Positions 236 to 13,745 of a stretch of DNA of 31,581 bases are shown in pieces. The translations under genes and the position numbers were made by a program. Source of the DNA: a virus; UHGV virus genome UHGV-1546770; one strand, written 5' to 3'. Below the pieces are notes generated by a model, which worked only from the letters and a program-made list of their open reading frames with translations, made no database searches and had not been told where the DNA came from. Every line of letters starts with the position of its first letter. Positions within the stretch are counted from its first letter, which is position 1.

Positions 236-292
236 ATATAATTTTAAACACTGGCAGGGCGGCGTATCCTGCATCTCAGATTCCCTATAAGA

Positions 293-350
293 GGAGCGTC
301 GGGAGCCTTTCCGACCTCAGTGTTTCATTTATGTTTCAACAACCGCTGAT
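293..350 (-). pseudogene. tRNA pseudogene fragment related to the 2-86 tRNA-like gene
   Basis: Minus strand AGCGGTTGTTGAAA...GTCGG-AAAGGCTC-CCGAC resembles the anticodon and T-arm of the 2-86 gene (same GTCGG/CCGAC stem) but the T-loop is degenerate and no acceptor pairing is found. Confidence 0.25.
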
Positions 351-3060: not shown

Positions 3061-3113
3061 TATCTTTTTTCGTTTTTTTGAATCACATATTGACTTCTTT
3101 CAACTATGCTTGG

Positions 3114-3142
3114 ATTATATCACAATAATTTCTGTTTGTCAA
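3114..3142 (-). promoter_or_regulatory. sigma70-type promoter, exact consensus with TGn extended -10
   Basis: Minus strand TTGACA aacagaaattattgtga TATAAT; -35 overlaps the TGA stop of the 3139-3669 gene. Confidence 0.6.
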
Positions 3143-3669
3143 GTGGCACTTTTTAAATATGCCCTACTATTCGCAAGTAATCCAAGTAATTTTACGGCTG
3201 TATTACAAATACAATCTCCATCTTGCCACCACATACACTTCTCCTCTGAACACATCAACGTTTTTGACGACGTTGCAGTATCAGAAAGACAATAGCATAG
3301 TGGACAGTATTTTTTATCTTCCATGTCCGTCACCTCACATAAAAAATCAAAACTATCCATGAACTCATTATATTGTTCTACACAGCGCTCAAGACATGGA
3401 AAGTTATTAACTTCTTTCTTATATTGTTTTCCATAAAACTGCATATATGGCTGTCCAAACTCTTCATCAAGCACTAGCACATTATCAAAGTCATTCCAGT
3501 CAGAGATATCGTTTTTAAAGCAAATACTTACACTCAGCGCATGGTCAATACTCTTTGTTACATACCACGCCGCATCATGATTAATCCAGCTTCCGCCTTC
3601 TCTAAAATGTGCTTCAATAAGCTGCTCTTTAGTTGGCACATACTTAAGTTTATAGCTTTTTGCTTTCAT
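3139..3669 (-). CDS. hypothetical Cys-rich protein (176 aa)
   Basis: Intact ORF; start ATG overlaps the stop of the upstream ORF; C-terminal CPLCYC and CMWWQDGDCIC motifs. Confidence 0.6.
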   Translation of the reverse strand: MKAKSYKLKYVPTKEQLIEAHFREGGSWINHDAAWYVTKSIDHALSVSICFKNDISDWNDFDNVLVLDEEFGQPYMQFYGKQYKKEVNNFPCLERCVEQYNEFMDSFDFLCEVTDMEDKKYCPLCYCLSDTATSSKTLMCSEEKCMWWQDGDCICNTAVKLLGLLANSRAYLKSAT

Positions 3670-3893
3670 TATTTCACCTCATCCATCTTCGCGCCACAGT
3701 TGTGGCAGTAATTATGCGTATATTCTTGAGGGCATCCGCAATCGTTGCACCTATACTTCCACGACAGCCATGTTGCGATTTGATTTATTGCGTTCCAATT
3801 TCGGCGGCTGTTTGAGCCAATCCTCAACACCGTGTAAACATTTATTGAAACATTTCGGTGATTCGCACTCATTGATTTCTGCACAGCACTCAC
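3669..3893 (-). CDS. hypothetical zinc-ribbon protein (start uncertain)
   Basis: C-terminal CNDCGC...CHNCG motif; stop overlaps the start of 3139-3669; no RBS seen before either candidate start; overlaps 3751-4080 in another frame. Confidence 0.3.
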   Translation of the reverse strand: MSAVQKSMSANHRNVSINVYTVLRIGSNSRRNWNAINQIATWLSWKYRCNDCGCPQEYTHNYCHNCGAKMDEVK

Positions 3894-4080
3894 AAACAGT
3901 GGTCATTGATGCAATCCATGCAGCTAATTCCTCATCGCTCATCGCCCGGATGTGGTCGGCGTTGGTTCGCTTTTTCCTCCGGTACTCGCAAAAAGAAGCT
4001 GTGCATTCTCCTCTGATAAAATAAGTGCAATTTGTTTCTGCTTCTTCTGGTGTTCCAGCACCACATGTGTACTTAATCAC
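3751..4080 (-). CDS. hypothetical Cys-rich protein (109 aa)
   Basis: GTG start preceded by AAGGAG; multiple Cys (CECCAEINECESPKC). Confidence 0.45.
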   Translation of the reverse strand: MIKYTCGAGTPEEAETNCTYFIRGECTASFCEYRRKKRTNADHIRAMSDEELAAWIASMTTVCECCAEINECESPKCFNKCLHGVEDWLKQPPKLERNKSNRNMAVVEV

Positions 4081-4312
4081 TTGTACGCTCCTTAATAAAT
4101 TTTTCCCTGATTGCTTCTTTCTCTGGGTCTTCGTATGATGTCTGCCAATACGCTTGCAGCCATTGGATATGCCTTATTTCTTCGTCAGATAGCAAGTACA
4201 GATGATCCAAAACAACCTGTCTGCGCTTGTATCGGTCTGGATGGGCGTTCCCTGCATAGATGCACTGGCAGCTTTCATACTCACAGATTGGACACTTAGC
4301 CATTGTCAGCAC
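4073..4312 (-). CDS. hypothetical zinc-ribbon protein (79 aa)
   Basis: N-terminal CPICEYESCQC motif; intact ORF in series. Confidence 0.5.
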   Translation of the reverse strand: MLTMAKCPICEYESCQCIYAGNAHPDRYKRRQVVLDHLYLLSDEEIRHIQWLQAYWQTSYEDPEKEAIREKFIKERTSD

Positions 4313-4562
4313 CTTCTTTCCGTTCTCCGTATGAGCAGAAATCGTTGTCCTCAGTCCAGTTAAATGACAGTCTCATAGGGCAAGGCGGCTTGTTATGGTA
4401 CTTGCACTCCCGACATCTGACCACTTCCACGGCATCCTTTTCCAATAGCAATGCCGCTTTTCCATAAACGGAATGCTCATATACTCCCGGTGTAAAATCA
4501 GCATCGTGAATCATTTTTAATGCCGTTGCTACCGTCCGTCTATCGGCATCAATCGGCCGCAT
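4296..4562 (-). CDS. hypothetical protein (88 aa)
   Basis: Intact ORF; CRECKYHNKPPCP motif; short overlap with neighbours. Confidence 0.55.
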   Translation of the reverse strand: MRPIDADRRTVATALKMIHDADFTPGVYEHSVYGKAALLLEKDAVEVVRCRECKYHNKPPCPMRLSFNWTEDNDFCSYGERKEGADNG

Positions 4563-4818
4563 CTATAATCTCCTCCAAACCTGCAATATGTTCAATCATC
4601 ATTTCTTTCGCAAACAATTCTCCTTTATGCAAGCATTCTCTCGCTTGAATAGATGCATCGACCAATTCATCAATAAGCTGCTTTAGGTTATTCGCATCAC
4701 TATACCCGTCATAATCGAAACCGATGTCCCATATAAATTGTAACCATTCATCTACACAATTTGGCTCACACATTTTACATCCTGTCTGTTCATCAATCCA
4801 ATATTTCATTTTATTCAC
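4549..4818 (-). CDS. hypothetical protein (89 aa)
   Basis: Intact ORF; CKMCEPNC motif. Confidence 0.55.
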   Translation of the reverse strand: MNKMKYWIDEQTGCKMCEPNCVDEWLQFIWDIGFDYDGYSDANNLKQLIDELVDASIQARECLHKGELFAKEMMIEHIAGLEEIIDAAD

Positions 4819-10040: not shown

Positions 10041-11051
10041 TCAGTCTCCTTTACCTTTTAAACTATTTATATATCTATCTAACTCTTCTTGTGTGATATA
10101 TCCTTTTTCAATTGCATCTTCCGCATACAACCAATGCAATGCCTCGCCTGTTTGTGGATGTTTATACGTATAATTTTGTTTACCTCTACAGCACTTTGTA
10201 ATAGAGCTTGGATCACATCCATATAAATTTTGTACTTCTTTTGCTCCCCAAAAAATTTGATTTAATTCTATACAATATATTCTTCTACATTTCCACCAAT
10301 TACTACCTTTACGAGAATCACTCATCTTTTTCTTTGCTTCTTCTGTGTGATGTTTCCCATACATTGGATGATTGCTTGGATTTATAAATCTTTCTTTTGC
10401 TTTTTCTGATAGATTTAATTTTTGTTCATCTGACAATTTTTTACCTAAACTGGGATGTTGTTTTCCTATCCATATATGTTTGCCTTTAGTTGTTGGATTT
10501 GCCCAATATAATTTATGTTTTTCATACCATTGTTTATATGTTTCTTCATCCATGCGTTCTTTTGGAGAAACTTTAAACTGTGGATTATTCTCGCCTACTA
10601 ATCCTGCTCTTCCATACATTGGATGATTATTTGGATCTGAAAGTCTTTCTTTTGCAGCTTTTGATATCTTTTTTCTTGTTTCTTTACTTGGAGTCCATCC
10701 TTGCGTTGTTCCTCCACCATAAACAAGATTATACCAATTGTTAGATTCAACAGCATTAAAGAAAACACTATAATTATATTCCATTTCATTTAATTCTTCT
10801 GCAGAATAAGCAATATCAATTACATTTCTTACAAAATTTTCTTTTCCATATTTGTCAATTGCTTGTTTAAATGCTGCACCACTACCAAGATATTCTTGCC
10901 AATTTCCATAGAATTTTCTTTGGCCTAAATATCTTTTGCCATCAATCAAATTCGTTGTGATATAAATAAATCCATATGGATCTTTTACTTCCGTATATGT
11001 TGTATCTTGTAGCCCATCAACGGAAGAATTCATTTCTTTTAATTCTTCCAT
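10041..11051 (-). CDS. GIY-YIG homing endonuclease with NUMOD3 repeats and NUMOD1-like HTH
   Basis: N-terminal YGFIYITTNLIDGKRYLGQ (GIY-YIG), repeated NHPMYG...K..S motifs, C-terminal ELNQIFWGAKEVQNLYGCDPSSITKCCRGK helix-turn-helix. Confidence 0.7.
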   Translation of the reverse strand: MEELKEMNSSVDGLQDTTYTEVKDPYGFIYITTNLIDGKRYLGQRKFYGNWQEYLGSGAAFKQAIDKYGKENFVRNVIDIAYSAEELNEMEYNYSVFFNAVESNNWYNLVYGGGTTQGWTPSKETRKKISKAAKERLSDPNNHPMYGRAGLVGENNPQFKVSPKERMDEETYKQWYEKHKLYWANPTTKGKHIWIGKQHPSLGKKLSDEQKLNLSEKAKERFINPSNHPMYGKHHTEEAKKKMSDSRKGSNWWKCRRIYCIELNQIFWGAKEVQNLYGCDPSSITKCCRGKQNYTYKHPQTGEALHWLYAEDAIEKGYITQEELDRYINSLKGKGD

Positions 11052-12770: not shown

Positions 12771-13745
12771 TTAAACCATATCATCCAAAATATTCGCGGC
12801 TTGCTGCTTTTTGTCTTTAGACATATTTGCATATCTCATAGTAGTAGCAATATTTTTATGATTAAGAACTGACGCACAAAGATAAATATCTCCAGTCTTT
12901 TCGTACAAATTAGTTGCACAAGAATGTCTCAACACATGTGGTGTAACATGCTTACTTGTCACATCCTTACTATATTTTTCTAGCATCACCCTAATGCCGT
13001 CTCTTGTAATTCTCTTTTTAAAGCTAGAAATAAACAAGGCATCTGTATTCGCCATGCTAAAATATTTGTTTCTATCCTGTAGCCACAATTCTAGCTGCTT
13101 CTTTACTCTATCGCCAAATAGAATATTACATGTTTTTCCTCTTTTTTCGATTACCTTAATAGTATTATTTTCGAAATCAATATCACCAATATCAATTTGC
13201 GTGATTGCAGATACACGCAACCCAGTAGTTAGTCCAAGCATAATAATGGCTAGATCCCTATTTTTCATCTTTTTGCTTGCAAGCTTATCAACATTTTCAA
13301 GAATCATTTGCATTTCTTTTTCTGTTAAATAAGCAACATCTGGTGTATCTTGCACTTTAGGACGTTCTGTTCTCTCCATTGGATTTTCTTTAATATAATC
13401 ATTTTCTTTAAGGAACCCAAAAAACGTATTCAATGCAGACCACTTTGTCGCACGAATACTATCACTTGTATTATAATGTCCATTGATAGTTTCTTTATTC
13501 TTCAATGCGGCAAAATATTTATTAATATCCAAAGGTGTTACCTTTTTATAAAAATCATTTGAGATTCTATTTTCATTAATAAATTCTGCAAATTCCTTCA
13601 CATATGCTACATATCTCTCAACTGTTGTATAAGATTTAGTTATACACATATAATAATAAAATTCAGAAAAAATTTTAGGAAGTCCTGTTAATTTTGCCTG
13701 CATCTTATTTGTAGCAACAATTTCCTTTTCCATTCTTCCTGTCAT
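12771..13745 (-). CDS. tyrosine recombinase / integrase (XerC/XerD-like)
   Basis: Catalytic-domain motifs TGLRVSA (Arg), HVLRHSCAT (His-x-x-Arg-His) and TMRYANM (Tyr) in the expected order. Confidence 0.85.
   Translation of the reverse strand: MTGRMEKEIVATNKMQAKLTGLPKIFSEFYYYMCITKSYTTVERYVAYVKEFAEFINENRISNDFYKKVTPLDINKYFAALKNKETINGHYNTSDSIRATKWSALNTFFGFLKENDYIKENPMERTERPKVQDTPDVAYLTEKEMQMILENVDKLASKKMKNRDLAIIMLGLTTGLRVSAITQIDIGDIDFENNTIKVIEKRGKTCNILFGDRVKKQLELWLQDRNKYFSMANTDALFISSFKKRITRDGIRVMLEKYSKDVTSKHVTPHVLRHSCATNLYEKTGDIYLCASVLNHKNIATTMRYANMSKDKKQQAANILDDMV

Follow-up and report, generated by a model that had tools for sequence, protein, structure and literature searches.

The 74-codon open reading frame called ORF2 here is best regarded not as a gene but as the scar of a deletion: a pseudogene fragment joined to a stretch of ORF1 that happens to be open in the +1 frame. 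I put the probability of this reading at about 0.9. The homology of its parts, the junction between them, the synteny of related genomes, and the relaxed constraint on the fragment can each be seen directly in the sequences compared. The window (by which I mean the whole stretch of 31,581 nucleotides that was analyzed) belongs to phage genomes of about 150 kb that are abundant in gut metagenomes. All genes around the finding are on its minus strand, and the coordinates of the features are collected in Table 1.

A preliminary description of the region drew attention to two Cys-rich open reading frames, ORF1 and ORF2, that overlap by more than 120 nt in different frames. That much stands: an exact recount gives an overlap of 143 nt (3751-3893). 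It was also right that ORF2 lacks a recognizable ribosome binding site (RBS). The frame offers five candidate starts (GTG 3893, GTG 3884, ATG 3872, GTG 3830, and TTG 3827), and reading the sequence 4-14 nt upstream of the five reveals no Shine-Dalgarno (SD) sequence of the GGAG, GAGG, or AGGA type; nor does the recount uncover a canonical start. The stop codon of ORF2 (TAA, 3671-3669) does overlap the start of ORF3, its last A serving as the first base of the ATG, and the zinc-ribbon motif reported at the C-terminus of ORF2 is indeed there, at 3749-3696. A Pfam scan of ORF1, ORF2, ORF3, and their neighbors found no match above gathering thresholds, and the zinc-ribbon matches below threshold are weak (zf-ChsH2, E=0.045). 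Gene finders have left ORF2 uncalled in public assemblies, and in eight contigs (e.g. L036) 81 nt between ORF1 and ORF3 go uncalled.

Table 1. Features discussed in the text, in window coordinates.
Feature	Position	Strand	Description
ORF1	3751..4080	-	109 aa, 10 Cys, GTG start at 4080
Shine-Dalgarno of ORF1	4088..4093	-	AAGGAG, 7 nt 5' of GTG; read directly from the sequence
Native part of ORF1	3799..4080	-	phrog_2999 family; GTG 4080 through '...EDWLKQPPK'
Acquired tail of ORF1	3751..3798	-	LERNKSNRNMAVVEV + TAG; probable remnant of downstream gene, read out of frame
Probable deletion junction	3798..3799	-	left homology ends ...CCGAAA (3799); right begins (A)TTGGAAC
ORF2	3669..3893	-	74 aa, +1 frame relative to ORF1
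Spurious 5' extension of ORF2	3798..3893	-	32 codons: +1 frame of the ORF1 C-terminal domain plus one junction codon
Probable gene remnant	3669..3797	-	42 codons, WNAINQIATWLSWKYRCNDCGCPQEYTHNYCHNCGAKMDEVK + TAA; 5'-truncated phrog_22543-type zinc-ribbon gene
Zinc-ribbon motif	3696..3749	-	CNDC-x12-CHNC, C-terminus of ORF2, inside the remnant
Shine-Dalgarno of ORF3	3675..3680	-	GAGGTG, 5 nt 5' of ATG, within the last codons of the remnant
ORF3	3139..3669	-	176 aa; ATG at 3669-3667
Homing endonuclease and tyrosine recombinase genes	10041-11051 and 12771-13745	-	

The two parts of ORF2 have different origins. A search with its last 51 amino acids retrieves exactly three proteins, P0001, P0002, and P0003, all of them full-length at 86-90 aa. 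They align to ORF2 from 'NWNAIN' onward with 73-85% amino acid identity, and the DNA of the remnant is 91-97% identical to that of the intact genes. P0001 reads MDEYIEREAD...ARHGHWNAINKIATWLSWKYRCNDCGCHQEYTHNYCHNCGEKMDEFDT, the other two are analogous, and the match to the remnant runs from residue 44 to the end; all four zinc-ribbon cysteines of the remnant are conserved in the intact homologs. ORF2 thus ends, over its last 42 codons, in the C-terminal half of a known small gene. P0001-P0003 are assigned to phrog_22543, a family of small phage proteins of ~85-105 aa and unknown function ('MAEYIEREAA...HG[HR]W...CxxC...YCPNCGA[KR]MD'), to whose profile ORF2 itself has a weak match (residues 35-73 against positions 51-100 of 105, E=0.099). 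The remnant corresponds to the second half of such a protein, but the 43 N-terminal codons, the start codon, and the RBS are all missing, so it is not a functional member of the family.

The translation of the remaining part of ORF2, 3798-3893, has no homolog among the proteins found. The chance that a 32-codon extension through the +1 frame of ORF1 would be free of stops is roughly 1 in 5, and with 42 codons of ancestral coding sequence beyond it, an open frame of this length is unsurprising. Among the possibilities first raised for ORF2, that of a spurious extension thus came closest. It is correct for the 32 codons at the 5' end but not for the zinc-ribbon part, which is genuine, though truncated, ancestral coding sequence.

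ORF1 divides at the same place. Its residues 32-91 match positions 49-104 of the 108-position phrog_2999 profile (E=4.2e-9), almost to the end of the profile, which indicates that proteins of this family normally stop soon after 'WLxQP'. The family comprises small Cys-rich phage proteins of unknown function ('TNADxIRxMSDEELA...WLxQP'), and ORF1 shares with them the core TNAD..SDEEL..Cys-rich..WLxQP. I found 359 homologs of ORF1. Native ends within the family read ...WLQQPPKGRC*, ...WLQQSAEGE*, or ...WLKQPAE*. What distinguishes ORF1 from other phrog_2999 members is a C-terminal appendage of 15 aa, LERNKSNRNMAVVEV, attributed here to the deletion. This tail occurs only in alleles that bear the junction and is absent from all ORF1-family members without it. 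The DNA that encodes it is homologous to codons 44-59 of the intact genes for P0001-P0003, read in another frame until the TAG at 3753-3751 is encountered. The last 15 residues of ORF1 are an evolutionary accident. At the other end of the gene, the ORF1 frame runs 20 codons further upstream in some genomes (MPKNVVCKKCNNLVNDWCDKV-IKYTCGAG..., in P0006 and P0009, 129 aa), so that the 5' boundary of ORF1 is another variable junction.

The junction was located by a three-way comparison, with L034 and L002 to the left of it and L021, L022, L023, and L024 to the right. Collinearity of the window extends, with L034 and L002, as far as ...CAGCCGCCGAAA (window 3799) and resumes, with the intact zinc-ribbon genes, at (A)TTGGAACGCAAT; the microhomology at the junction amounts to 1 nt. 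Compared with L021 and L024, the window lacks about 145-147 nt, a stretch that holds the last codons and stop of ORF1 followed by the RBS, the start, and the first 43 codons of the downstream gene. In L002, L021/L022, L024, and L034, an intact gene of the phrog_22543 type lies directly 3' of an ORF1-family gene. L002, from a 165-kb IMG/VR contig, has an ORF1 homolog ending ...EDWLQQSAEGE* and then the intact gene 'MAEYINREAA...HGRW...YCPNCGARMDGG'. The contigs that encode P0001 and P0003 have an ORF1-family gene (ending ...EWLKQPVEIEEA* or ...MWLQQPAVEGDNG*) directly preceding the zinc-ribbon gene.

In L034, a single Logan contig, the phrog_2999-type and phrog_22543-type genes are fused in frame (1501-2055; P0038, 184 aa). 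To judge from the ends of proteins of the P0021 type (...PPKGRC*), this fusion probably arises from a difference of 1 nt shortly ahead of the usual stop. The RBS and ATG of the downstream gene are still present despite the fusion.

The identical junction is found in 16 independent assemblies: the window, one IMG/VR contig, one JGI contig, and 13 ENA/Logan assemblies, most of them from human gut. A JGI metagenome contig, L025, found by the pattern WKYRCNDCGC, is identical to the window over the 822 nt of 3139-3960. A degenerate pattern for WLSWKYRCNDCG retrieved only one IMG/VR contig, and neither it nor L025 is the ancestor prior to deletion. That exact ancestor, with ORF1, a P0001-like gene ending AKMDEVK, and ORF3 in succession, was not found in the collections searched. 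A blastn comparison of 3100-4600 with 50,697 GenBank phages gave no match, and a literature search turned up no description of this locus.

I propose an ancestor in which two small genes lay side by side. The first would have been an ORF1 of the phrog_2999 type that ended about three codons past '...WLxQPPK'. The second would have been a phrog_22543-type gene of ~85-90 codons, 'M(A/D)EYIEREA...HGHW...CxxC-x12-CxxC...MDEVK*', with a stop codon that ran into the ATG of ORF3. Some 145-147 nt would then have been lost by an illegitimate deletion, whose junction at 3799/3798 shows 1 nt of microhomology. It would have taken the last codons and stop of ORF1 along with the downstream RBS, start codon, and first 43 codons, and the halves that remained would have been joined in different frames. 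Since the join is out of frame, ORF1 would read through 15 codons of the remnant before reaching its present stop, and 42 zinc-ribbon codons would have been left with no means of translation, drifting. The remnant, on this proposal, is presumably untranslated.

The variation among the 16 genomes is compatible with neutrality of the remnant, on which there is no detectable constraint. Over 3797-3672, read in the ORF2 frame, there are 17 variant events, 5 synonymous and 12 nonsynonymous, a synonymous fraction of 0.29 as against 0.17 expected for random substitutions (p=0.15). Two are nonsense mutations (W>* in L032 and E>* in L027), two remove zinc ligands (the first, C>R at 3749 in L044, and the third, C>F at 3706 in L033), and one is a G>C change in the NCG knuckle (L041). 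In the segment downstream of the ORF1 stop (3749-3672), 3 are synonymous and 9 nonsynonymous, the latter including C>R, C>F, G>C, and E>*. The part shared with the ORF1 tail has five variants, two of them synonymous in the ORF2 frame and none in the ORF1 frame (0 synonymous, 5 nonsynonymous), and neither frame is significantly constrained there. The controls behave differently. In the core of ORF1, half the variants are synonymous (13/26, 0.19 expected, p=3e-4), the mark of purifying selection, and the same 35 codons in three intact zinc-ribbon genes give 7/15 synonymous (p=0.013), with every Cys and Gly retained. These two were used as controls; the 5' region of ORF3 is not a clean one, L031 being mosaic and divergent there. 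The question set beforehand, whether homologs conserve only one of the two frames, can thus be answered: hundreds of proteins conserve the overlap as sequence of the ORF1 family, and the ORF2 frame is not conserved.

Some observations count against the idea that ORF2 contains a remnant. The zinc-ribbon frame is still intact in 12 of the 16 copies, and the synonymous fraction of 0.29 nominally exceeds the neutral expectation; given 17 events only, there may be weak constraint on the relic. The junction allele is also common, the tail-bearing clusters having ~180 member sequences, and it occurs on different N-terminal modules of ORF1 (P0013-P0015). An allele that is common and found on several such modules is not strongly counter-selected.

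An alternative view, raised at the outset, is that ribosomes reach ORF2 by frameshifting from ORF1. A programmed +1 (or -2) shift within 3751-3798, for example at GUA UAG G, would produce a fusion of ORF1 with the zinc ribbon. I consider this very unlikely. It is true that ORF2 is in the +1 frame and that a stop codon, slow to be served in the A site, stands where the shift would be needed. The junction allele is widespread, and the in-frame fusion of both families in P0038 must be at least tolerated. Moreover, the four substitutions that separate the window from L001 within the span of ORF2 are all synonymous when read in its frame. However, this last sign of selection on ORF2 is gone once 16 genomes are compared (3 synonymous and 9 nonsynonymous downstream of the ORF1 stop), and it serves as a reminder that a synonymous-substitution signal from two genomes can mislead until further genomes are added. 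Other expectations of frameshifting fare no better. There is no tRNA re-pairing in the +1 frame at GUA>UAU or at any codon in 3751-3798, and inspection of the codons of 3751-3834 found no shift-prone re-pairing in that frame. There is no SD like that of prfB three nt upstream and no AGGGGG or GGAGG 5' of the stop. The overlap was searched, as had been suggested, for a slippery site and downstream structure, and neither was found. The predicted RNA fold of 3660-3830 is no better than that of shuffled sequences (z=+1.02), and an Rfam search found no match in the ORF1/ORF2 region, so that an RNA element there is rejected. What the region has in common with +1 frameshift sites of the prfB type and those of phages is the +1 relation and a zero-frame stop where the shift would be required; unlike them, it lacks a slippery P-site codon, an upstream SD-like stimulator, and RNA structure, and its downstream frame is not conserved, suffering nonsense and Cys-ligand mutations. 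Finally, a deletion between two genes that relatives carry separate and intact accounts in full for the arrangement.

A related possibility is low-efficiency recoding at the ORF1 stop (GUA UAG G), in which a +1 shift without re-pairing would append the zinc ribbon to some molecules of ORF1. I regard this as extremely improbable. If true, it could help to explain why the allele is common and why the ribbon is intact in most copies. Were the frame of the remnant translated, there should be peptides from ...NMAVVEV-[x]-RCNDCG... or YRCNDCGCPQEYTHNYCHNCGAK.

It is hardly more credible that ORF2, or some shorter version of it, is an independently initiated zinc-ribbon protein, a true overlapping gene with a weak or non-canonical start. 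Open across 74 codons, the frame has a stop/start overlap with ORF3 that resembles that of translationally coupled genes, and initiation on leaderless messages or without SD sequences does occur in bacteria. Yet every candidate start lacks an SD, gene finders pass the frame over, and its upstream 32 codons have no homolog. The TAATG overlap is inherited from the intact ancestor, and it is found with intact genes as well in L035, L037, L039, and L040. In L032, a stop codon lies between all the candidate starts and the zinc ribbon, and L033 and L044 have lost Cys ligands. With no start signal, and with nonsense and Cys-ligand mutations in several of the 16 junction genomes, the true overlapping pair envisaged in the preliminary description is not supported.

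That a sequencing or assembly indel artificially broke a real, single fusion gene is effectively refuted: single-base errors are common in metagenome assemblies and the two frames do differ by one base, but the identical junction and frame relation recur in 16 assemblies from different samples and assemblers (SPAdes NODE_, MEGAHIT k127/k141, Logan, and JGI), no homopolymer is present at the junction, and relatives carry two separate genes rather than a fusion.

If ORF2 is a deletion scar, then its overlap with the start of ORF3 has to be viewed in the light of what precedes ORF3 elsewhere. In other genomes, the same ORF3 protein is encoded behind various intact zinc-ribbon genes, of 84 aa (L037, L040, and L008), 89 aa (L039), and 102 aa (L035). 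These genes end ...CGA[KR]MDEV[KE]*, with the same TAATG overlap and an SD that contains AGGT, and the AGGT core is kept in every allele 5' of ORF3, whether remnant or intact. The SD and start context of ORF3 lie in the last ~15 nt of the remnant, and this is why that stretch, a conserved module boundary, persists; the remainder is a passenger. In the ancestor, translation of ORF3 was likely coupled to that of the zinc-ribbon gene upstream. Since ribosomes now leave ORF1 81 nt upstream, ORF3 probably relies on its own SD and initiates de novo rather than by coupling. No promoter or terminator was found inside the relic. ORF3 is itself mosaic: the allele in L008 (3001-3348) is without residues ~31-92 (61 codons) and is 115 aa in length as opposed to 176 aa, and many related contigs (L009-L019 were compared) share only its C-terminal Cys-rich module of ~60 aa.

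Phage genomes are mosaic, and gene remnants and pseudogene fragments are left at module boundaries by illegitimate deletion and recombination. The region considered here is an ordinary and well-understood feature of this kind. Like other phage gene remnants, it is a fragment truncated at its 5' end and devoid of a start signal, with 1 nt of microhomology at the junction and intact relatives in synteny. As with them, its variation is compatible with neutrality and includes nonsense and ligand-loss mutations, and it lies in a hypervariable region of early genes that contains several further deletion fusions. It differs from typical remnants in nothing essential, though its 3' end still supplies the SD and start context of ORF3 and the allele is unusually widespread in human-gut metagenomes.

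In the wider surroundings, the replicative helicase shares 31% identity with the helicase of Geobacillus virus E3, with a weak resemblance to SPbeta-like phages. Among the products of neighboring genes are an AAA_24 ATPase, a GIY-YIG/NUMOD3 endonuclease, a tyrosine recombinase, and a DUF932 protein. The endonuclease gene, SegE-like and of the homing type, is situated between replication and recombination genes, and the gene for the tyrosine recombinase (Phage_integrase) is close by. A full-length skipping-rope RNA (Rfam RF02924; 77.9 bits, gathering score 36.7) occupies window 246-325 on the minus strand, within a cluster of four phage tRNA genes (5-86, 165-235, 764-843, and 1072-1145, also minus). 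Three perfect sigma-70 consensus promoters (12/12) are found on the same strand at 3142-3114, 3060-3032, and 2631-2603, each with the extended -10 TG and a common 'TTGACAAACAGAAA...' context, and two of them are in tandem just 3' of ORF3. The same promoter sequence comes directly after the intact zinc-ribbon gene in L021/L022, suggesting a module boundary that is both conserved and repeated.

The small Cys-rich genes around ORF2 form a highly mosaic stretch, as seen in the deletion fusion of L001, the shortened ORF3 allele of L008, and the in-frame fusion of L034. In L001, a gene of 144 aa (2055-2489) is an apparent in-frame deletion fusion, as judged by comparison with window 4549-4818 and L008 2747-3001: it combines the first ~76 residues of the 89-aa gene of the window with residues ~20-81 of the 84-aa gene 'MRLIDAD...NYCPNCGAKMD' of L008. 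The out-of-frame fusion in the window is another product of the same mosaic process.

For annotation, this means that ORF2 (3669-3893) should be called neither as a gene nor as a recoding site, and that 3669-3797 should be labeled a pseudogene fragment. Beyond that, the locus offers an example, resolved to the nucleotide, of how small Cys-rich accessory genes of ~150-kb gut phages of the Firmicutes type are shuffled, fused, and truncated at short conserved boundaries.
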